Assembly: GCA_028534125.1 (NCBI GenBank)
Contig: CM052816.1
Span: forward strand, 57,228,001-57,292,000
Direction of reading: 5' to 3'
Source of the DNA: Lama glama
Taxonomy: Eukaryota
Length of the DNA: 64,000 nucleotides
Under the pieces are notes generated by a model that was not told where the DNA came from, did not search any database, and saw nothing but the letters and a program-made list of their open reading frames with translations. This document shows positions 34,801-58,800 of the stretch, piece after piece. How positions within the stretch are numbered: the first letter of the stretch is position 1; every line of letters begins with the position of its first letter. Position numbers and translations under genes: made by a program.

Positions 34801-37800
34801 TTTCTGTGTTATAGTTTTTTTTTTCTTTAACTGACATACTCTTCTTTCCTAACCACTTTTACTCTGCTTCTGAAAGCTTTAGAGGTAAGATTTATTGATA
34901 CTTAATGTTGAGGGGAGAAGAGCAGGGAGATGGAAGATAATGCAAAAATACTGTACATTTTTATAATTTATCCAATGATATCAATGGATCTTGTATAGAA
35001 ACTGGACATAATTAGTACAAAATTGACAGTTAAACCTTAGAGTTATTCTTATTTCTGAGACACTGTACATTGCTGGAAAAAGAAAAATTAAGTAACAGAG
35101 TATTTTAGATACACTTTAGGATCATTAGTCAACACATACATTTGCTTTTGATACAATACCTTGTGAAGTTTCACAGTGCTTTTCAATTTCAGAGAGAGTC
35201 CCAATCAAATTATCATCTTCTATCACATTTAAATAAAACAAAATATTGCAGGAAAAGAAAATACTTTCAAGAAACAAAAAGAATCAAAAGCTTAAATCTG
35301 AACAGGGAGCTGAATAAACGTCACAACAAAGAACTTTTGAGGTAGATTTAAAGAGACTTTGTTGTACAAAATCCACATTACATCCTGCCTGCCTGTATCA
35401 TCACTGTCACCTACTTGTGGTTCTCCTATTGCCAGCATTGACCCAAAACTAAAAACAAGTATCTATCAATTTAATCAAAGTTAAAGTTCCCATCACAAAA
35501 AGAAAACTTTCCAAATAATCTAGAGATAACGGGAAAGGACTAAAGCAATTCTGTTTACCCAGACTACATGCCTGATTTCTAACAGGACCCATGTGTTTTT
35601 TAAGACTTACTGGATATATTTACACAAAGTTGAAAGATGGGAAAACCAGTAATGTTCACAAAACTATATGACAGTAACATCATGTTTAGACATTTAGAAA
35701 TCAAATCATGTTTATCTCATTTTAGCCAATACTACTCATGCCATTTTTACAATGGCTACACACAGAAGATGCATTTCTTTGTGTGTGTACTAACAAATCA
35801 AATTGGGTATAATTAAAGCAGCTAAATTAAGACTGTGATTCTCAAACTTAACATGCATCAGAATTGCCTGGAAGGCCTGTTCAAAGACTGCTAGCCTCAC
35901 TCCAGAGCTTCTGACCTAGAAGGCCTGCATTTCTAATCAGTTCTCAGGTGATGCAGACAGATGCTGCAGGTCCAAGGACCACACTTTCTGCACTGCTGAA
36001 TTATGCTCAGTTAGTGCAAACCAGTAATTTTTATTATCAAAGATTAACTATTTACTACTGAGAAACAGCAATGGGGACAATTATAATTCTTATGACAGGT
36101 TGTTGCTCCTGAAATACAGCTTCTCTGTTTAAGTGGCTTTGTGCTTTGTATATTATATTAGCAGTGGGTAAGAAAAATGGTGAGAATTTGTGTAAAGAAT
36201 TGAATAAAACTGATGACAGAAAAAACTCGAGCAAAATCTAGATATAAAATAATCAGTTTGTTTGGTGAAGTTTAGGTTTACAGTTATGCCTTAATATCTA
36301 GTTTTAAATCTGTATGATTTAAATTCTTATAGAAAAAATAAATTGATTGCAAGCACAAAACCCCTTTTATTGAATCAGTTGCTTTTAAAACAAATTTTCT
36401 TAGGAATCCAAGTATCAATTCACAGTAGAAAGGACTGCATCGTATTTTGCCTTCAACTATTTATACTGGTCAGTAGTTTATAAATTTAATGCATTCTTAA
36501 CAGTGCTAACCATGGTTAAAATTCTCTCCAGATAATACACAATGTGAAAGAGAAGGAAAATGTGGCTAGTTTGATAATGCCAGGTATGTTTCCAAAAAAC
36601 CAAAATGTTTAATGTTTAATTCTTCACTAGCCCATTAAAAAAAAAAGCCTCAGCCTGATCATATTTTGGATGCTAACTTTCCCATGTAATCGATGATAAT
36701 CACTTACCTACTGTTGGAGTATTGGCAGCACTTAATGAAGCAGAAGACGAGATAGAGGAAGAACTTTCTGCCCGGGCTAATGGAGCAGCAGGAGGTGGGC
36801 TGGTACTAGACGTTACAGGTGGGCTGAATGGCCTGGGCTTAAGAGCAAAATATTATGTACCAAAATGCTAAACAATTCCCCTCTTCTCAGAAAAGATTCT
36901 GAAGTATCAAGTAAGATTAATTTTAACATACTAAACCAACTTTATTGTGTTTCTTACAACCCACAGAGATGCCATATGTCAGTCATTTTCAAGAATATAT
37001 TAAAAGCTGAAATGGCTATTTTAAAATAATGCTGTTTAGAGAATCTTGGTATATAAAATATTTTCTGTATTTCCAAAAGTATGCTTAAGACACATTCTCA
37101 GAAGTTAAATTATTAAACAATGTGAAGGCTTCTCATACACACTGCAAAACTGCTTCCCTTTTGGGTTACTCACTTTACTGCCTATAAAAAAATATTTCTC
37201 TGGATTCTTGCCAGCAATAAATGGATGAGCCTTAGGAGAAGGAAAAATAATAAAATTTTAAAACTTGTAGCTAATTTAATAGATAAAAATAAAATTGGCA
37301 TTTCCCTTTTATGAATTGTCTATATTAGCTTTGTCTTACTGAGTCTGGGGACGACGTCTTAGTATTTATTACCCAAGCTTTCACTAACCCTTTTCTTTAA
37401 TGTAAATATTTTCTTCCTAAATATTGCTTGCCCTTTACTTTTGGCATTTACACATCTGTCCACATTTTCTTTCATAATTCCTTGTTAATGCTTCCTCATT
37501 GAGAAAGTTCACCCCATTCAGAGATTTGAGAAAATCTTAATTCTACTATCTTCCTATTTTCTAGTTAAAAATTACAACAAATATACAAAATATGATTCCA
37601 ATCCATTTATCTTTTACTTTGGTGAATGGATTTTTTTCTTTCAAAATTCCTAATTGTTCCTGTAATGTGTTAGCAACACTTCCTGAGTTATTTCACTTTT
37701 TAAAATACGGACTATTGAGCTTAATTAAAAATAACCTTTTCCTGTTTGTAAAACTATTAAGTGAATGCAAATTTATTTAGGGCCTAGTATGTGTCATGTC

Positions 37801-40800: not shown

Positions 40801-43800
40801 CAGTTTGGTAATGCAGATTGTTGAGGTAACTTTATCAAGAGCCTTGTACATTCACTTAAAACGTTCAACCACATGGATTATGGAGTACCACTGGAGATGT
40901 ATATCGGGAAAAAGATTAGTCCTGACATTTAGAAATTTAATTCTGGCAATTAAACTGGCAAGTAAAAGATGAAGCAAAGCAGAATAGACTGAAGGAGAGA
41001 AGACTGGCTTGAGAGAGTCTGACTCTGAGTAGAACTAATGTATTTTCATTATCTGACAACTTTTGAAAACCAATGCCTTTTTTTTTTTAAAGCAATATGC
41101 ACTTTTACAAGCCAGTTAAGTGATGTGAACTGCAGATTCCTTATGTATAAAATAAAGATGGACTAGATGCCTACCAGGACTCCCCTGGCAGTGTACTTCT
41201 AAGGCCTAAAAACGGGCTACCTGCGTACTTGACTTCAATATTGGAATTTAAGTAGAATTATATGAAAATTGCTATTTAATTATGAAACAATGGGTACTGA
41301 ATTGTATTTTTTTATCTTTTATCAACTTTCTCAGGAGAGCTCTTTCTTCCTGAACAATGGTTTTGCTCCACAGGTATGAACACTAAGATAATATAGGGAA
41401 GTAAAGAAAGTATTAGCTGGGATAACTTTTCTGTAGTTTGAGAAGCATATAGAAAAATATCATTTGTACATTTGCATTTTAAATCAAAAGTTATAATTAA
41501 AAAAAAAAAACAACACCTGAGTACATACTATTTCATTAATCCCACTGAGTTTGCCTGAAGTAAGCTTTGGTCTGGAAGCAGGCCTTGGAGGTGGGACAAT
41601 GGTGCCTATAGAAAGAGGAGTTGTGGGCCTGGCTGGTGGGTGGAAAAAGAGAATTTGAAGAAAATCATTAGTATGCAGCAATCCTTACATAAAAACATTC
41701 TATTATAGAATGACTAGGTTTCAAAGCTCATTTTTTTCAGGGTTTTTTTTTTTTTAATATAACTATAGCTATTTATTGAAATGCTGTGACTCTATCAAAT
41801 ACACTTTTTTCAAAGCTACCAATAATATTCCTGAAAAAAATCATTAAATTCTCAGTTAAACTGACATACTATAAATTATATTCCTGTTTCAATTATTTAT
41901 GCACATAAAAATTAAATCTAATAAATTAGCTGGTGAAAATTAACCAGTTTAGGGTCTAAGATCTTTAGTTTATTGCCAATACTCCTAACTTTATAGTTAT
42001 GCAAGACCAAGCCTGTGACGCAACATCTTCAGAGTAATAACATGAACTCTAAATAAAACATTACCTTAATTAAATTTGAAATCTCACTTTTAAGTTGAAT
42101 CACACTGTACCATTTTTTGGTGACAATCAAAAATACCTCATTAGTTTACCAAAAAAAATTTCCCCAAACCACTAAAATTAATTTTTGGTAAATACAGAAA
42201 ATCATACCTTAAGTCTTCCTAAATCCTATATAAATTTAGTGTTCAATATTTTAACACCATTTTCAAACTTTACAATTTTATAAATCAGAAATACTAAATA
42301 ACCTCAGTATTCCTAATTAAAAATAACTCAGCATGGTAGAAACTAATGAAATTCAAGTATACATCAAAAGTCACACATGTATTAGCATAATCAAAGCAAG
42401 TGTGAAGAACAGAAGCAAATACATTTAAACCAGCTTTAATTACTTAAAATGATCTTCAAATCCTTTTGGACCATTCTAAAAGATGGGGCTATAATTCAGA
42501 TTGAAGACTATAATACGGATGGGAAGAAATGTATTTCAATAAGCTCTGTAAGTTTACAGATGTGCAAAGTTAAAAATATATGAATAGGCCTAAGCATATA
42601 CATGATGAAGCAAACAGGAAAGCTGAGGACAGTAAGCTTGGGCAGCAGTGGAGGCATGAAAGGAAAGGGCATGGAGGTGACAGAAGACATAAAAAAAAAA
42701 AGTTAGTCACACACAGAAGTGAAGGTAAATGTATGGGGGTATGGAATCATTTAGAAAGTAGATCATATGAAGAGAGAAAGGATGCAAGCACAGTTGAGAC
42801 TGCTTGAAGAAAACATCAAAAAGCTGATAAGAAATCAAGCTTAGATCCTTCTTCCAGTCAGCACCAGTTCTTTCATGCTGCACCCCTGCTTTAAGCTGTA
42901 CATTGAAAGAAATGTGCACTAGCCTGAGGACCATAACACTTCTCTGAGCCATGACATATTTACTTTGAAGATATGTTCACTATCAATGAAACCAGCACTG
43001 ACCAATACTCAAGTTATTTCAAGCTTGTGATAGAGCTTAACATAGTAGAGACATTCACTCCTGAAGCTTCATTAATGATCATGTGACCTGTCCAAATGGC
43101 ATTTAGATTGACTCATATCAAGCCCGGTTGAAGTTCAGCTCCTTCAAATAATCAGAATTTGCTTTTTGAAAAAAGTTAATACAATATCTATTAACATCAC
43201 TGTTTACAAATGAATCTATTAATTGTAAGTTAATAATAAATTTATAAATTATAAATCTATCTCTGTATGGCAATTAGGTACTGCTTTTAGGAGCCTCTGA
43301 AAGAGATTACTACAATTGATTACAGGCTTAAGTATCTTAATTGTGTTTTGTGGTGGTGGTGCTGGTGGTGGAGCTCACTTCTAAAAAATGTCTATTAGAT
43401 ACAGTATTTCAAGAAATAGGAAGTGACTTGTAAAGTATAAAAACATAGGCAATAAGAGCTAATCTACATCTGCCTTCTGACATTACCTAAGGGGAAGGGA
43501 CAAAGCATGTTTCCTGTAGCATTCTTCGCCTGAACAAAGGTACAGACTAATCTAGAATCCAGAAGTAATGATAATGCAGAAGAAAAATTAGCAGCATTGT
43601 TAGCTGCTTCTGTTAGTAGTTTTTCAGGATATGTAATAGTATGGCAAAGGCCACTCTGATCCTCAGAGATGCAGCTGTTAGAAGATCTGTCATCCAAAGC
43701 ATCAAGGAACCCAAAGGTATTTTCAACTTTATAGTGCATCTCTGGAAAGCCTTATAAGTGCCACTGGAGTCAGTAATTTTAACAAGTTCATCAGTAAAGG

Positions 43801-46800
43801 AAATCCACTGACTACAACCATGAAGCAAAAGGAAATTTATGCTGGCTGGTGGTGGTGTTACAGCAGGATAACATAGAGGGTTGATGGAACAGTCTGGTAA
43901 TGGGTTTTCTAGACCTAAAATCTGACCTGGTTTCAAGTAAAGATTCAATTGTTACACACCCAGACAAGTCAGTTTGGGAGAGAAAAGTAAAGCTGTATTC
44001 TGTTCATTAAGGTCAACAGAAGAAGAGGAAAGCAATTGAAAACAAGAAGTAACAGAAAAATTCTAGAAATAAAATATAAATCTATATAGCCAAGTAATTC
44101 TTATTTCAGGTTAATGTTACTTTAATTACTCAAAGCTAGAAAAATTTAATACATGGAAAAGAGCTTGAAACCCAACTTTATATTAACCAAGGAAGATAAA
44201 TAGGAGAAATAAGAAACTTAAAATATAGATGAGTAATATTTGAGGTCCAAAAATATATAAAGGCAGAATTATTCCTGTTTCCCAGAGGAGCAAAAGGTAA
44301 TGTTAACAGTAAAAGTCTAAAAAGATATGACAAGGTATCACAGTGATAGTGCTTTATACATGTGTTACTCGACAAAGTGCCTGTCTGGCTAGTAATAAAA
44401 CTTGAAACTGTTAGGAAGTAAGAGGAATTAATCAGTTTTGGATTTAATATATAAAACTTAGCCTAATATTTTTCAAAAGATAATTCTGTGGGGTTTTTAC
44501 AGAACTCAGGTGCTCAGTTAATCCACGGGTAGAGGAGAGATGGTCCATACTAGCACTTTATCAAAAAGGAAGTAGATGTGACCTATTTACATTAAATTAC
44601 ACATAAATATTTTATTATATATAAATTTATTTATATGTAAATGATACGTAATGTTTATTTATGTATCTACATGGTGGAAGAAGCAACTGAAACTACTTCT
44701 ATACCAAGCTCTAAGTATGCTTTTTAAACATACAACAACATTTATCAGTTATTAACTAGAATTATTTTCTTCGAGACTGCTTTAGCTGAGATGGTGTCAC
44801 TAATGAATTAAGATTCTTAAAGAGACAGAAGAGAGTAGGGAATAATCTGACAAACCACACCTTGCGAAAATGTGAAAATGGGTACCTGTGTAGATAATGT
44901 TAAGATGGGAGAGATGCACTGCAAAGAGGTGAAAGAAAATTTAAGACAAAATACCTATTTCACAATTTCACTTAGAACCAGTCTTATAAAACATCATAAT
45001 GTATTCATAAGTTTTTATCAATAATTATATTCTGCTCAAGTGAAGACATAATCATAATTACTACATAGCAGAATGTCTTTTCAACATCACTAACATTCTT
45101 TGAAGGGAAAAATAATTTGACATTATTTTTCAGAATAAATAGGAAGGTTTTAAAAGGCATACCAAAATAAATTTTAAAACACACAAAAGGTTAATTTTTT
45201 ATCATTTCCTACCTACTAAACATCAAATGACAGCTGAATGAAAATGTATTATTTTCTACCTGAGGTTGAAAGTGATATGGGCAAAACATTCTTTAGACAG
45301 GGAGCAAGAAGAGGGCATGTTTTTGAGAAGAATGAGGCTGTGCTGAAGGAAACAGCAAAAAACAAAGGGTGTTATGAAGAAATTTCTATATAACTAAATA
45401 CTATGTAATAACAAAGTGAAAACTTTTATTAAAGATTTAAAAAATAAGTCATAAAAGAATATTAACAAAATTAAAAAACATTGCTTAGGACTCCTTTCAA
45501 TCTAAAAACAAAAACACTATTCTGACATTTTCACTAAACAAAAAAGAGATGTTATTACAACTTCAGTTTTTCTTGTACAATTGTTTTACTTACAAAATCT
45601 ATTAGTAAGATTAGTTTCCTAAAACAAAATAGTAACAAAGCCCCATTGAGAGAGGCTATAATGCCACTTTAGAATATGTTCAATTATCTAGTGACTGTTT
45701 CTTGCTGTTTTACAAGTTTAGGTGCACATCACCTAATACTTTCTCTTCAAAATTCCTAATTGTTTCAGGTTAAGGTTGCCTAAAATCCATTTATAATTTC
45801 TTTTTAAAACATTTAGTTTCTAAACAGTCCAATTTTAAATATTAGTATTTATGTTATTATTTTGTTAATCTGCCAGTGTGTGATAAATAGAACAAAGACT
45901 TTAGAATCAGTAAGACTCAGGTTTGAGTCCATGCTTCATTTCCTAGTTATATAAAGTTCCTGGTCATCTCTGAGCTTTATTTTTTTTCATCTATATAATA
46001 GAGAGACAATAAGAAGGATTCCATATAGCAGTTAATGAGGTGAAATCAAATAGAATGTGCAGATTTCAGGAGAGACGTAGCAGGAACTCCATCAATTCAA
46101 GTTCTCTTCCCACCACTCCAGCACTCCCTTAACCCCAACTGGCATTTCTGAAATCCCAGGGAAGGCTGAAGATCAACTTAAACTGATTTTATTTTCTCAT
46201 TTTAAATAAGCAGTTTTATTAAACATGTTTTGATTCTTGACAAATGGGATTCTAATATTTTGAAGAAAAGAGAAATTTAATATATTCTTGCCAAAAACAA
46301 CAACTAAAATTCATTCACCAAGTTCTTTCATGCATTTCTTGGGAAGTGCTAAAACCTTTCTGGAAGGCAGTTTGGCAATAAGCATCAATGGGCCTACTTT
46401 ATGATTCATAAATCTTGCATTGGTAAATTATTATAAGGATATGAGATGTGCACAAAATTTATTATATCCACAGATGTTTATAATACTAGAAAATCAGATG
46501 CAACTTGAGTGTCCATCAAGATAGGACTGATTAGATTAATGTATACATGCAGTTGAATAATATTAAGAATTATTATTTGGGCACTGATATATAAATGATA
46601 CCTAGAAATAAATATATAATATATAAATGAAAAAAAGTTGGTGTTTGATAAATTTTCATTCTTAAAGCCATGGTGTCTTTAAGGTCTGTTAACAAAAACA
46701 GTATAAAATCACTCTGATCTCGCAATATGATAGAGGACAAGTTAAAAAATTTTTGATCATTAAGTACAACATACAAGTAATGAATAAATGAATTAGAAAA

Positions 46801-49800
46801 AAGTAACTACTGCATTCCTTTACAGTTAAAAAAATACATATATATATATATTTACCTGATGATGACGAAGTTAGTGAAGCTGAAGAAGATGAATCAAGAG
46901 ATGGTCCAAACAGGGGGTCCCAAGCAAGTAAATCACTGTTCCCTTTACTGCCATAACATTTTAAAAGTAGATTTTAAGCAAAGGAGTATTTTATTAGTAC
47001 AAAATCTAGTCACTTGTTTTTATTTCATAGAAAAATTGTAACAGCTCAGTATATATGATTAAAGAGTTAGATATTCTGCCAGTTGACTATTTGAAGAAAT
47101 TTAATTAGCAGATTTCATAAACTGGTATTTATTAACTGCTATAAGCAAACCTACAATAACATTATGTGAGGTCGGTAAGGGAGGGTAGAGATTAATCCCC
47201 ACTGATTAAATCTTGTTATATTCTAACAATCTTAGGGGGCCTCAGAATGGAAATAATTTCAGCTTTACAAATGAAAAGCAGCACAGAGTCTAAATGACCT
47301 GCCTATCTATGGTAGCATAGCTAATTAATTCTACAGTAGTGTCAGGTCTGCCCATTCACATCTAGCATCCAGTCTTGGACAGAAAATTTCTTAAGTGATA
47401 GAAAATCAGGTAGAAATTTTAAAAGGCCATACTTACTTTCAAAGATGAAGAAAAAGGGTAAAAGATTTTTTTAAAGTACTTTTTAAGTACAGAATGGTGG
47501 CTTAAGCCCCATCTATATAAACTTCAAAGGTCTGATCACTAGAGTAGATCGTGCATAGGTGGGGTTTTTCCCTAGGCAATCCACTACCTGGGCCACTAAG
47601 TCGGTCTAGCAAAATGTCTGGGTCATATATGCCTTTTTATGAGGTTACCAAAACCATGGACAAAATTAAGAGTATCAGCAGTCTAGTTTCAAAAACAACA
47701 TGTATAACCAAAGATTTTCTTCCACTGACTTCATGGAATCCACTGGACCCAGTTACTCTCAGGATTCAACTCCTGGCTCTTTAGTGTGTATTTAATAAAG
47801 ACTTTTATATAAATGTTTCTCTTTTTCATATTAGTCACAGCCCTTTTAAGATGCCTAATCTCTAGGATCTTGAGCATGTGATCTTTGCTACCACTTCTTT
47901 TTCTTAAATCCAGCTTTACTGAGATTTGACTGACAAATAAAAATTGTATATATTTACAGCATAAAAGAGAACATTAATCCTCATTTTAAAAAATTTAATG
48001 TATCAATCTGCCATTATTTAAAATATTTTTCAAAAATCTTAGAAAACAGGCCCACTATAATACAGTTATCTAAGAAACATGTATCTAGTATTTCAGCATG
48101 CACCGACATGGAAGCACAGTCATATGATAACACCTAGAATCACAACTGCATAAATGATTCTTAAAAACAAAGTCTTAAAACACTAAACTTCTCTTTAAAT
48201 ATGACAAATCAAATGAATACCACCACTCTGCTCAGTTAGTGCCTAGCTTCAAAAGTTTCAATTTTAAACTACCCCTCTAATTAAGTCTACTTTTACTCAT
48301 ACAAAAAAACATGAAAAGAAAGTAGTCTTATTGGTAAATACAGAAGTGAAAAAGGACCTATGCAACACTGGCTTTATACACACACACATTTTTTTTTTAA
48401 AGAAGAGCTTGCAACATGTCTTCTAGACCTCTCTTTTTTCAACTAAGTTGAGATACTTCTTCATTTTGAGGGTCATAAAGTATACAGTTTATTTTATAAG
48501 GTCACAAAAAAACTGAAGGAAAACAAAATTTCCATGAGAATAACTAATTAGTTGAAATACAGATGTGTATGAATTTGGGATATCATCATTTATTCAGAAG
48601 CAGTGAGGACATCAAGGCCAAAATAGGTGAATGGGTTTTTTGTTAATTATCATAAAAAGAAATATTATCAAATGAGAAATAATTTAAAACATCTAAAAAT
48701 TCCACATGATGTTTCACAGCTTAGGAAAAAGGATGATTAAAAACACTCTACTGGAATTAAAGCTGCAGAGATAATAAAACTCTCTAGAAAAAAAGGACAA
48801 AAGAAGAAAATTTTTCATGTTTAAATTTTAAAAATTAAATTGCAATGGGAAGGGACACAGGATTTTTAGGGCAGTGAAATTTTTCTGTATGATACTATAA
48901 TGATGGATACATGTCATTAACTATTTGTCAAAACTTATAGGTTATACAACACCAAGAGTGAACACTAATCTAAACCTTGGACTTAACGGTGATAATGATG
49001 TGTCAATGTAGGTTCATCAGTTTTGACAAATGTGCTATTCTGGTGGGTGATTCTACCAGTTCAGGAGGGGTTTGGTGTATGTGGAGGGAAAGTGTACATG
49101 CAAAAATCTCTATACCTTCCACTCAAACTAGCTGTGAACCTAAAATTGCTCTAAAAAATAGTCTATTAAAAAAATTTTTTTAATGTGGAACTTACTCATT
49201 GGATGCAGCAGATGGCTTCGATTTTGTTAACTCTTCACCTAATCAAAAAATTGAAATATTATGAAAAAAATAATCTGAGTAATAAAAATATTTTAATATA
49301 GAGAGAAATACTACACATATAGTAGTCCATGAACAATTTAAAAAATATGGCATTAATAACATATATATATATATAATTTAAACAATTACAAAGAAAAGGA
49401 ACATGTCTTTAATAAGTTTTCTACCATGCTTAAGAATATTTAGCTGAATTTCTGCTAAATTTTTATTTCTTCTAATAGCTTTAGTAAGAAATGACTTAAA
49501 TCAACTAAACCATCATATTCATTAAACTGCTGTGAAAAATATATGGGCTTCAATAAAATTAGAACGAATGTCTAAATTCTTACGTATTACTTAAGAATTT
49601 TAACTGAAGAATCATGAAGGCATTTTTCAAGTTCTAATGATATTATTAGTGATTATTATATTGGCCAAAAGTAGTTATTAACTCTTGAAACACATCCTAT
49701 TTTGAAAAATAAAATTTTTACAACAACTTAGTCTATTTTGCTACCTTTTGCATTTCTAATATGAATCAAAAGCAACCGGTACACAGGGCAACAGCATCAG

Positions 49801-52800
49801 TAATGCAATAGTCCTGTTGGTTCATAAGTAATTTTCCCTGCACCTTAATGTTTTGCAACAAACACCAAGCAATGGCTAATATATCAACATGGGTAACTGC
49901 AACAAACTATGAGGAATACCACAGTGTACACTGATACTCATTCAAACCACATTCCTTCATTTGATTCAGTTTGGTTGGTTATTTTGCCTCAAAGTGCTTA
50001 TTGTGTTGTTCTCCATCTTTCTGAGTTTTTCCCTCATCATCATAACTCAGTAGACTTCCTTTATACTCATTTTCTTCACATACCTTATCAAGCTACTTAC
50101 CACTTATTTTTAAAAGTAAAATCCTACTTTTAGCTTGATATTTGTTATGAGTTTAACGGGTCTTTGTAATTGTGCTAGAATTTTCACTGGGACTGATGTT
50201 ATAGTTCTGGGTCATGAGGAAGTTATGCCAGTTAAACAGTTTAATACGTGGCTACATTTTTCAGAAATCAGCAGAGCCAAAGAGTAGCTTCTAAATAAGC
50301 ATGTTAAAGTTTAAGGTATGTCTCAACACTAAAAAAAAATAATATAGATAAGTTGTCTTCTGTTGTAAAGTAAGTATCTTTCTAGTCTGTCATTAAGGCT
50401 CATGATGAGAAAAGACGATTTCTACAACTGTATATGTTAGGCTACAAGCTTAGCACATTGCCTGATAAACTTAAATAGACTTAAAATAACCAATTTAAAC
50501 ATCAGACTTACTAGATGAATTCCGATTCATCTGCACCTAAAACAGAAATATAAAAATAAGTGCCATTAAACAAATAATTTGGTAATAAAATATCTGGTAA
50601 AATGTCAATACTGAGAACTAATTTTAAGTTATTTTTAATGTATCTGCTCAATTGTAAACTGTATTTACATAAAAAGATTACAGAAAATACTTTCAGTAGT
50701 TTTTTGTCTTATAATTTAAAAAATACATATACCTTTAACATTCAACAAAAAGTTTCAAAATACTAATTATCTATATAGCAAGATACCATGGCTTGCTAAT
50801 TTAAAAACACAAATATTGTGCAAATCAATGTTCAAACATAATGATTTTTTTTAAAGTCAACAGGTAAAAACATAAAATCTTGCACTTACTGGACTGTGTC
50901 TCTAGCAGTAGTACATAGAAGGGAAAAGAAAAAATAGTGTTAAAAAATAAGAAAAAAGAAAAAGTGTTCATTCTATAATTTAAAATATCACATTTCCCTA
51001 GTCATCCATCTATTCCCTTCTGAAACATACCTAAAATCTATACACCTAAGAACACATACATACACTTTTGGAGGGAAAAGAACTTAAGCTAGATAAACTG
51101 GGCAATAAAATTGTGAGATCCTCTTTCAAACCCAATATTAAGTATTAAATTTTTTATTTATTACTCATCTTCTGAGTACAAAATTATGTTTACTGTTTTT
51201 TTAAAAATAGAGAAGAGCACAAACGATCAATTATCTCACTACCCAAGATGGATGTTTAACATTTTGATGTATATTTCCTCCAGGCTTTTATTTGCGTATG
51301 TATTTTAAACTAGTTATTATGCTCTTACACAAAAAATTTTTAATGGTTTCACAACTTCCTACTTCATATATATATATATATATACACACACCATAATTTA
51401 ATCTTGGCATTAATCTTAATAAGCTAAGTAGAAATGGTCGAATAAAACCTCACTTCAGAAATCTCTTTTGGTGGAAAAAATAGTTCTCAAATTAAATTCT
51501 TAAAGTGCATGACTAGGGAAAAAAACATTTTTTCCAAACAAATACATATAGACTACTTACAATATTTAATTACATAACAATACGAAATAGTGTGAACTTT
51601 TATTCTTCATTATCAAGAATGGTTTTAGGTGGGGGAGGGTATGGCTCAGTGGTAGAGCACATACTTAGCATACAGGAGGTCCTGGATTCAATCTCTAGAA
51701 CCTCCATTAAAAAAAATACTAAATGGGGGGGAGGGTATAGCTCAGTGGTAGAGTATGTGCTTAGCATGCACAAGGTCCTGGGTTCAATCCCCAGTACCTC
51801 CATTAAATAAATAAACCTAATTACCGCCCCCCCCAAAAAAGAAGAGTTTTAAAAACAATTACGATAAGTATGTACAGATAAACTAAATTGACATTCTAAG
51901 ATATACTTTTTCCCATAGTTTAACATTTCTGAATTTAAGAGTATGACATCAATAGAAAGATCTATTATGATGATTTTTTTCTCCCTCAAAGCTATTAAGA
52001 ATCTCAGAATTGAATAAGTAACCAGTAAGAATTCTTATCTGTACCTCTCTTTGTATGAAAACTATGGAAAAACAAACAATACAGTGAAAGACAAAAAAAA
52101 ATGCAAAGATATAATTTAATCTTTAAATTCTTTTTTATGGAACTCTCTTTTATAAAAAGTTCATCCAAAAAATGAATGAAAAACTTTTAAAATTAGATGA
52201 GGAAGAGATTAACACTGCCCATTCACAAAATTCTGCCTGGGACAACACTACTTATAGTACAAATGGCAGAAATAGTGGATTTTCTGAATTTTTGTTTAAA
52301 ATACATTCAAAAGGAAATAAAACTGAGCGAAATTCACAAATTCACTTGCCTGTATAAAAATTATAAATGATATACCTCAATAAAGCTGAAAAAATTATAA
52401 ATTAAATATTTCCTCATCCAACATGCTTAATTATTGCTAAGTGATGTTTTATTTTTTATTAGTTCTAAAACTAACCAGATGCAGGTAGATGACATTAAAC
52501 AAACTAAGGCTTCCGTATAAAAACTGTAAGTGACTTGCTCATTTTCTTACTTACAGATACCGCTGGGGAGAGAGTTATATTTCCTATAGATACTTTTAAT
52601 TCATCCAATGAAGCCATTGTGTGATGTGAGTTATTTGGATGCATAGGTTTGATTTCTATCCGGTATTTCTTTGGTTCTTCATCTTCAGAATCAGAATCAC
52701 TAGATGAGTAGAAATGGTTCTCTTTGGTATGTGAGTTATCAGTTAAAGAATTCAGTTTTTAAGTTACCTTAATGCACAACAAATTTTTCACATATTTATA

Positions 52801-55800: not shown

Positions 55801-58800
55801 GAAATGGTGAAAAGATTAGCGGTTGCCAGATCAGGGAGAAGGAGGGAATGAAACAAAAGTGGCTGAAAAAGGGCATCAAAATGAAAGATCCTTGGAACAC
55901 TGGAATTTCACACAACATTGTAAAATGATTATAAATCAATAAAAAATGTTAAAAAATACATATAAAAATAGTAATTTTCTTATTTAAAGGCTGAAATATA
56001 AAACAAAAATACTAGTATTATCTTAAGTAACATAAAGCACAGTGTTTTACAGAATACCTAGTTTTTTATTTTGGTACACCAATATCCTATAAAAGAGCAT
56101 AACATGTTGTGGCCAAAAGAAACAACAGTAATGCAAGCAAGAACAATAAAGGAAACAGCTGGACTCTACTGCACTTATCAACATGAGCAGTGTCTAATGA
56201 ATTCTAATGAACAATTTGAAAAATGTGTCTGTCTACACATTACTTACATCATTTGGTAAATCTACTCTCCCACTGTACCCACAGGGAGCTCCATCTGATG
56301 TCTTCTTTAATTACATATAAAGAAATATATTTAAACAAAGAAATATAAACAAACTTTCTTTAAAACAAAACAAAAAGCACAGAAAAGTACTAACCATGGT
56401 TGTTGCTATTTTTTCTAAAACTACAGTCTGCTAAACAAAATTCAAATATAATGAACAGATAAAAGCAGTATTTTAACAGATCTAAGAATCAATTAATAAG
56501 AGCACCACATTTTAAAATAAAGTAGGCAGGTTTGAAATTTGACATATTTCCCAAGAAAAAGCAATATTCTACGGCACCACTTCAATTTTAAAAGTAAAAT
56601 ATCCACTTTTCAAAGATAGTTAGAAATATCTTCTATTATTAGTAAACCAAGGGTATCAAAGCTTATAGCAATGTAAAGCCAAAAATGCATCTGTAAAGTA
56701 ATTTTTTAAAAATAATTTTAATAGTGAATTTATAATAACATGGTTAGTATTTTTCTTGGAAACGTTTGTGAATAGCTCAACCCAAATATGCTGGGTATTT
56801 CCTAATGGAAACAGCTAAACTGTTTATACCAAAATAAAATCTACTTACAAGTGAATCTGCATCAGGGCATTCCCTGTTAAAATAAACAAAATATTAGAAA
56901 TATTCAACTGTTAGAACTATCTGATAATTACACTAAACTGAAAGTTTTGGCTTTGGTATTTAAATATAACTTTTATTTAAACTCTAGGAAAATTAGAGAA
57001 ATCAAATCATGAAGATTAAAATATACCAAATGATTTTAAAATTCACACAAAGACATTACCCTGTACCATACTAAAAGATAAAATAAAACAAACAGCTTAC
57101 GAGTATTTTAAAAACTACTTTCAAAAGTACTTCTTTTCCATGAATACACACAAGAATCATATCAAGGAAGCTGTCAGCCCTACAAGGATTTCTGGTGGCT
57201 TTTAATCCTTCAGGTGGAGAAAGAAAAAAAAAAATCCCTCAAAGAAGAAAATCTGGCTTTAAAAAATAATCTATATTTTTATTGGTAAAAAATAGTAAAT
57301 AACATATTTAAATTAAAATTTTTTTAAACTTCAGTTTCCTTCCCATAAGCTAGCATATAGGGAAGTGAAGCCACCTTTCTCCAAATGTTAAATGAGCAGC
57401 TAGACTTTCAGCCAGAATAGTTTCTAGTCTAATGTAATATGTAATTGAGAACTGATATTTTATAATTTAACTAGTAAGCAAACAAGAATCTGGATATAAT
57501 CTAGTGAAAACTATTACTTTAAATGTAAAGCTAAAACATAAATATCAACATTCTCGACTAGCCAAATAAAGACCTAAAACTTAAAATTAAAGACATTAAA
57601 GCCATGAGGAGTAAGGTGAGAAAAATTTGTATGTATACTAGTTCTAAAACAAATTCACAAACAAAAATTAGAGTGCGTATTTTAAAAGCACTAGCTTAGT
57701 TACACAGTCTTTGGCTTGAGATATTAATGCATATAGTGTGAGATTTTGCCACTTTAATAATAAACTGAAAACACAGACATTAGATACACCTTAAGAGCCA
57801 AACGAACAATAATAAATGGCACTAAATATATAGGGAAAGCACTTAATATACAGGATAAACAGGTAATCTGTATCAATCCAAAGACTAAGCACAAACCAGG
57901 AAAATCTACAAATTAAAGAATTTTGTTCAAGAAAGGATGAAAGAGACTGAAAAAGTGAAAAAAGAGGGAGATGACTATACTGTTCTTAATCCAAATGGAA
58001 GCACCAAAGAGACAGGATGAATGCAACCCCCACATGTCTTTATATCCACTTAAAATAGCAAATTTTGAAAAAAAGCTTCCTTATTATTGGTAGATTATAA
58101 GAAATATTTTATCAAAAAAACCTATGCATACTCTGAAGAAATGTTCCAAAATAGGTACTAGGATAATAAGTTCAATCCCTGTACAGAATAAAATCAATTA
58201 AGATGTGAGAAGACTTTTCTACTTTCTTCTTTTTTTTTTTTTAAAGATAAAATGTAAATATAAAAGTAAGTATAAAAGTTCCAAACTGTTAATTCTCTGG
58301 CTTAAACCAGAATCCTCCAGTCTTTGCGGTAAAGCACTCATCTGTTTGCTTCACAGTGCACAGTGTGAGACCTGCAGGTGAAATCCCAGGAAGACTATGC
58401 TCTGAGCAAGACCCCTCATCCACAACTGCTGGCATTTCTAAAGCCTTCAGGCTATGAGAAGAAGCATGCCAAGAGCCTCGGGCATTTCAAGCAAAATGAA
58501 ATCTCAACTTTTTTTTCTGCCAGGAAGTGTTGAAAGAAGGCGATCATGATGACCTAGTATTCTTATTGGTCAAATATTCCAATATCCAAGTGGCCTAAAT
58601 GATCATACTGGGAAATTATGGTCATGAAAAATTGTTTTAAAAACATGAAATAAACAAAAATATTATAAGCTCCCTAAATGAACAGCTGTGAAAACCATAC
58701 ATTGTAAAAACATTTTAACTCTTTCTAATACAGTCACTAACAGATAAACTGGCTACACTGTAAAAATTTACTTTAAAAAATCAATTGTTTAGATTTCAAT

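Follow-up and report, generated by a model that had tools for sequence, protein, structure and literature searches.

The 64,000-nucleotide stretch of the Lama glama genome analysed here (GenBank assembly GCA_028534125.1, contig CM052816.1, positions 57,228,001 to 57,292,000; hereafter the window) carries the 3' part of FCHO2 on its minus strand. FCHO2 initiates clathrin coats, and short blocks in its linker are what engage AP-2. A camel FCHO2 protein maps onto the window as 17 exact segments running from 61883 to 17213, and an exon of the mu-homology domain (muHD) matches Camelus and Vicugna entries at 100% identity. Between the exon of the C block, ending at 46856, and the ARPTTP exon, starting at 41632, lies a phase 1 intron, and an earlier note on this DNA had correctly placed within it the fossil of a long exon with a WxxF-acidic motif. 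From sequence comparison, we believe that this element is very probably a pseudoexon, orthologous to a cassette exon of amniote FCHO2 and now decayed.

Results

Among FCHO2-like proteins, taken as the best 120 of 966 matches to a muHD bait (104 of the 120 named from placentals), a 982-residue wallaby FCHO2 holds a long insert at the junction where the fossil lies. With that insert as the protein query, a word-limited search of 846 candidates found an insert at this exact junction in ten database proteins: six rows from five marsupials (wallaby, sugar glider, devil, bilby and opossum, the last with two rows), one from ptarmigan, and three from monotremes (echidna, and platypus with two rows). 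The exon encodes 168 residues in all five marsupials and in ptarmigan and 86 in platypus and echidna, the monotreme form stopping just past the WxxF motif, and the indels that separate marsupial, monotreme and bird exons are whole codons only. Entries without the insert also exist (wallaby P0098, opossum P0118), and the presence of both kinds in wallaby and opossum is consistent with a cassette exon. Over the whole exon, 60 of 170 columns are invariant in the six long forms. The nine intact forms are rich in serine (18-26%, with 3-9% proline), and the Pro-rich label originally given to the exon has to be dropped. Overall, we strongly infer that the exon of marsupials, monotremes and birds is an optional cassette, placed after the C block and before the Pro-rich stretch that precedes the muHD.

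A scan of DNA for the motif, not based on open reading frames (ORFs), led to three loci, two of which (L001 and L002) were discarded because they show no similarity to the window. The third, L003, is a bird-like contig with 78% identity to the ptarmigan exon; at 2779-2270 it carries an open exon of 510 nucleotides (nt) with AG and GT bounds, and it is flanked by three FCHO2 exons, ordered as they are in the window. Aligned to this exon, the fossil is identical at 322 of 495 bases, as against 42 of 82 and 54 of 110 in the flanks, and the fact that similarity ends at canonical splice sites argues against an incidental non-coding element. Both ancestral splice sites are dead in the window (Table 1), and the frame is shifted five times relative to L003 (+2 at 43975, -2 after 43903, -7 after 43840, -2 after 43818 and -1 after 43739), with one further, in-frame indel (-3 after 43572). 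Reading from the old acceptor meets a stop at codon 22 (43954), while the ancestral frame of the fossil is itself stop-free. The alignment also moves the limits of the exon, first proposed at 43914 or 43926 and at 43487, to 44016 and 43520; the proposed acceptors lie inside the old exon and score weakly.

Past the intact donor of L003 (2230-2269, minus strand), GCATG stands at 10 nt and CTAAT at 34 nt, neither of them found at the matching places in the window; we take them to resemble RBFOX and QKI sites. They hint at tissue-regulated inclusion of the L003 exon, a lead from one locus.

A frameshift-aware, colinear alignment, of the kind that the earlier note had called for, is significant, with scores of 249 for wallaby, 190 for ptarmigan and 119 for platypus FCHO2, where the null maxima for the same three queries are 40, 43 and 39 over 114 other tiles of the window and 52, 66 and 36 over 100 shuffles each. 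Amino acid identity to the window in these alignments is 46-53% for the five marsupials (147-150 aligned positions), 40% for ptarmigan and 51-53% for the monotremes. The exon has also changed to excess on the camelid branch. In a relative-rate test with L003 as outgroup, camelid-only changes number 32-35 and marsupial-only changes 11-17 (p 0.001-0.03), a two- to threefold excess, although the five comparisons share one camelid branch and are related, not independent; in the remaining protein, which serves as the control, the corresponding counts are 30-33 and 23-32 (p 0.34-1.0).

At the same time, a number of observations weigh against our interpretation. The intact long isoforms are database gene models only, and the word-limited search returned no match from reptiles, amphibians or fish and a single cluster from birds. 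The intact exon evolves fast, with 80 of 167 residues identical between wallaby and ptarmigan as compared with 697 of 810 in the remaining protein. Identity between the window and L003 by codon position (110, 101 and 101 of 161; fourfold sites 19 of 28) bears no coding signature, in contrast to a constitutive exon (30, 33 and 25 of 33). No frameshift was seen to be common to all placental-like remnants, and one bat model, P0026, retains a 41-residue in-frame piece of the middle of the exon, without the WxxF motif, that may reflect either real splicing or a modelling artefact. The absent codon-position signal and the predicted status of the isoforms are also what would be expected if annotation had made exons of frames that were open by accident in an old transposon or a conserved non-coding element. 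We consider this most improbable, since marsupials, monotremes and birds share an open frame of near-constant length, whole-codon indels and a motif conserved at the protein level, and since the fossil is single-copy within the window and has no match in Rfam (0 matches).

The pseudoexon interpretation also bears on how the loss spread and when it occurred. A HMMER search gave seven matches, of which three (P0132, P0135 and P0136) were discarded as compositional noise. Four short ORFs match the remnant and carry other frame breaks. P0130 is identical at 149 of 157 positions and keeps the window's frame everywhere except near 43739, which makes assembly errors an unlikely source of the breaks near 43903, 43840 and 43818; for the one near 43739, a recent origin and such an error are both possible. 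P0131 has two breaks in common with the window, whereas P0133 shares none of the four within its span and has its own, and from these patterns none of the frameshifts seen is the first hit common to all. When the best 120 of 966 FCHO2-like proteins are compared with the exon, it is matched (E 1e-3) only by the wallaby isoform and the 41-residue bat piece, and all camelid isoforms in that set are without it. A seal model, P0027, resembles the 5' end of the exon by eye; it missed the threshold of E 1e-3 and was not counted.

Of the 50 scorable residues that are otherwise invariant, 15 are changed in the window (95% interval 0.18-0.45), a proportion that fits neutral decay over about 0.18 substitutions per site (range about 0.10-0.30; simple simulation). 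A value of about 0.18 substitutions per site is near the camelid root-to-tip length within placentals. An early loss within placental history is plausible on these grounds and loosely dated. It could have come about by one inactivating hit or by several losses; in the camelid lineage, inclusion would have been lost and the sequence would have drifted, leaving FCHO2 isoforms only without the exon.

The material from which the fossil was first recognized is largely as described. Both overlapping minus-strand ORFs are present, as are the peptides read from them and from the downstream CCA run (the first from 43867, QWISFTDE from 43810, GNMLCPF from 43514 and APPPAPPP from 43374); the AGs that would open an exon (43926 and 43914) put the first ORF in phase 1, and an exon from 43914 to 43487 would measure 428 nt and meet a stop at codon 101. 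It is because of the orthologs, which lay outside the earlier note, that its core is supported.

Whether the remnant is partly alive has to be considered against this background. A low-level exon subject to nonsense-mediated decay (NMD) might arise from cryptic sites (43487 with 43926 or 43914, or an AG at 44062), or the DNA of the motif might serve as a regulatory element. Both proposed cryptic exons are out of frame and contain stops, as an NMD exon would; the AG at 43926 (score 0.4) and the GT at 43487 (1.6) lie at the low end of the range of true sites, by a matrix built from only the 17 acceptor and 16 donor sites of FCHO2 itself; and the motif block agrees with L003 at 29 of 30 nt and keeps eight of eight invariant motif residues. 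On the other side, 72% (43914) and 30% (43926) of 2883 background AGs score equal or better and 19.5% of 2344 background GTs match or exceed 43487. Retention of the motif has p of about 0.06 under neutral decay, L003 was chosen via that very motif, so that the near-identity does not count as proof that any function remains, and the motif of P0133 is altered. Residual activity of the remnant is, in our judgement, improbable.

The stretch around the 43487 donor, a pyrimidine tract followed by AG and GT, is laid out like a recursive or dual-specificity splice site, an arrangement that could arise by chance. The intron also holds a second decayed cassette of 83 nt, which matches a 29-residue insert of two bat models, platypus and echidna; if included, it would act as a poison exon, and it would be a better candidate for that role than the 428-nt proposal.

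The remaining features of the window are collected in Table 1. The 96-nt unit found there in two copies is presumably a transfer RNA-derived element of the short interspersed kind. An intact 60-nt cassette downstream is, we assume, equivalent in position to the optional segment of SGIP1-alpha; in SGIP1-alpha, that segment is C-terminal and 20 residues long (PMC8740024). Database screens added little. In Pfam, five local ORFs gave nothing past the cut-off and one weak match to DUF599 (E 0.057); a word-indexed protein search with the mosaic ORF matched 0 of 233 candidates; the ESM Atlas gave no usable match and one low one (0.76); the PDB held no match to the long exon or to the 20-residue exon; and a phage collection gave 0 matches, a result uninformative as a control.

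Table 1. Features of the window in and around the FCHO2 intron that holds the decayed exon
Feature	Position	Strand	Remarks
Fossil FCHO2 cassette exon, 497 nt	43520..44016	-	phase 1 at both ends; DNA alignment to L003 2779-2270
Dead ancestral acceptor, AG>TG	44017..44018	-	...TTCTG| where L003 has ...TTCAG|; pyrimidine tract retained
Dead ancestral donor, GT>CT	43518..43519	-	G|CTACAG, as against G|GTATGG in L003; L003 alignment
Five frame-shifting indels	43739..43975	-	relative to L003
Retained motif block, WXX[FW]X[DE]	43784..43813	-	29/30 nt identical to L003
First ORF	43613..43951	-	stop-to-stop; mosaic of in-frame and out-of-frame fossil pieces, no gene
Second ORF	43464..43751	-	stop-to-stop; 3' half of fossil in ancestral frame, through dead donor into intron
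CCA run reading APPPAPPP	43351..43374	-	intronic, about 150 nt past exon end, outside fossil; L003 alignment
Intronic pyrimidine tract-AG|GTAATG site (43487 donor)	43481..43506	-	better acceptor than donor, top 1.5% of AGs
AG...GT-bounded stretch, about 33 nt	44887..44918	-	good pyrimidine tract; no ortholog seen
Second decayed cassette, same intron, 83 nt	45260..45342	-	AG and GT both intact; acceptor strong; phase 1 frame has a stop
Upstream constitutive FCHO2 exon (C block, WDPLFGPSL)	46856..46942	-	ends in phase 1
Downstream constitutive FCHO2 exon (ARPTTP...)	41529..41632	-	starts in phase 1
Intact 60-nt cassette	about 35160-35219	-	matches 20-residue insert in devil FCHO2
57-nt (19-residue) exon	56248..56304	-	in camelid isoform models; missing from other 10 aligned proteins
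96-nt unit, two head-to-tail copies	51631..51811		repeat

Discussion

The best-conserved 12-mer of the exon is WSQSQWISFxDE, with 11 of 12 positions invariant in the six long forms, and the block is also kept in the short monotreme form; the acidic residues past the phenylalanine (xDE) are invariant in all nine intact forms. WXX[FW]X[DE] has one match per long isoform (three scanned) and none in camel P0010. Patterns of the WxxF type are common by chance, so that orthologs are required as evidence; W..[FW].[DE] occurs ten times across the six frames of the window. In the AP-2 alpha appendage, it is the sandwich subdomain that the WXX[FW]X[DE] consensus binds (PMC5694535), and SQWISFxDE, which fits this consensus, is predicted to be a ligand of the alpha ear. 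The upstream C block attaches to the platform of that appendage with an affinity of 100-200 uM; through WxxL it also binds C-mu2 (PMC9054013). Of the claim that FCHO2 once had a long isoform binding the AP-2 ear, the WxxF-acidic exon, frameshifted here, is borne out by the orthologs, and the binding itself is a match to a consensus.

A simple model can be drawn from these elements. Inclusion of the exon would lengthen the linker by about 168 residues (86 in monotremes), and the C block, about 95 residues upstream of the motif, would grip the platform weakly while the motif occupied the sandwich of the same ear. Long FCHO2 holding the ear at two sites might then resist competition from DPF/FxDxF proteins. 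We think it somewhat probable that the long isoform holds the ear in this way. The main rival keeps the same fossil and changes the partner, with W-x-x-F binding the cargo pocket of C-mu2, as the WxxL of the C block does, or binding another adaptor. A receptor WXXF signal is reported to bind mu2. The affinity of the FCHO2 WxxL for the Yxx-phi site of C-mu2 (about 25 uM; PMC9054013) lends this alternative some weight, but the residues xDE after the phenylalanine are invariant in the nine intact forms, as the alpha-sandwich consensus demands, and we regard a partner other than the ear as rather unlikely.

A further question, compatible with the pseudoexon interpretation, is whether the exon descends from an ancestral exon shared with the long proline-rich segment of SGIP1 and so predates the duplication that gave FCHO2 and SGIP1. 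Three SGIP1-like matches had been offered, of which the WxxF block lies in the exon and two, GNMLCPF and APPPAPPP, are intronic, past the old donor. A SGIP1 segment with W-x-x-F-x-D was presumed in the earlier note and is not used as evidence here. Within the exon, NV[I/R]CPExxLxEE (in marsupials; window 43640-43608) appears by eye closer to the second SGIP1 motif given in the earlier note than the intronic peptide chosen there does, in an unscored comparison. FCHO2 has its closest paralog in SGIP1 (PMC4215538), in which a proline-rich domain precedes the muHD (PMC8740024). Set against this, SGIP1 is found in none of the ten matches among 846 candidates when the intact exon is the query, and the exon is Ser-rich, unlike the SGIP1 segment; SGIP1 chains in the PDB span the muHD only. 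A common origin with the SGIP1 segment is possible, and we hold it as a tentative view.

Taken together, the pseudoexon in the window, the intact exons elsewhere and the motif raise the possibility, one we put at slightly short of even, that in ancestral amniotes a long isoform of FCHO2, its inclusion regulated, carried a second alpha-ear motif that let it clamp both sites of the ear and perhaps shared its origin with the long segment of SGIP1, that placentals lost this isoform, and that the small neighbouring cassette decayed here too. Should this be true, the FCHO2 whose mechanism has been worked out in human and mouse would be a reduced form, and opossum or chicken would keep the isoform that was lost. 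An optional AP-2 motif that birds and marsupials both conserve, and that has died in a placental, would lead to a revised view of the ancestral initiator of clathrin coats, and would provide a natural pair of isoforms and a clean example of exon-level loss within an essential gene. Exon-level loss is itself a known type of event, and the intact isoform is already in database annotations. In the papers found, a set to which most subscription papers do not belong, neither the long FCHO2 isoform nor its loss is described. One cross-species survey limited its analysis of exon gain and loss to exons shorter than 500 nt, by which an exon of 504 nt would have been filtered out; FCHO2 is absent from four text supplements of that survey, whose larger data tables may list the exon (PMC8187152).

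Among the closest comparisons are the long isoforms annotated for FCHO2 in marsupials, monotremes and ptarmigan, which have the same exon, junction, phase and motif, intact there and splice-dead and frameshifted here. The proline-rich linker of SGIP1 is a paralogous segment in a similar position, Pro-rich where the FCHO2 exon is Ser-rich. Stonins and NECAPs, ligands of the alpha-appendage sandwich, offer a likeness of another kind (PMC5694535, PMC6912373): WISFxDE fits their consensus and likewise sits in the low-complexity linker of a protein that acts in endocytosis, and stonins, like long FCHO2, pair WxxF motifs with a muHD. The FCHO2 motif differs from these in lying on an optional exon and in that its binding is predicted and, in the accessible text, unreported for FCHO2. 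The FCHO linker blocks N1-N3 and C are short, conserved and AP-2-binding, and the C block is encoded in the adjacent upstream exon (PMC9054013). That block uses the alpha platform or C-mu2, and the WxxF exon would be a further candidate block, one missing from the placental protein. Finally, TNNI3 exon 3, which has undergone pseudoexonization in shrews and in moles (10.1101/2023.05.19.541292), is likewise one motif-bearing exon lost from an essential gene that is kept. The gene and pathway are different, and the FCHO2 exon is far longer, apparently widely lost in placentals, and comes without an adaptive story.

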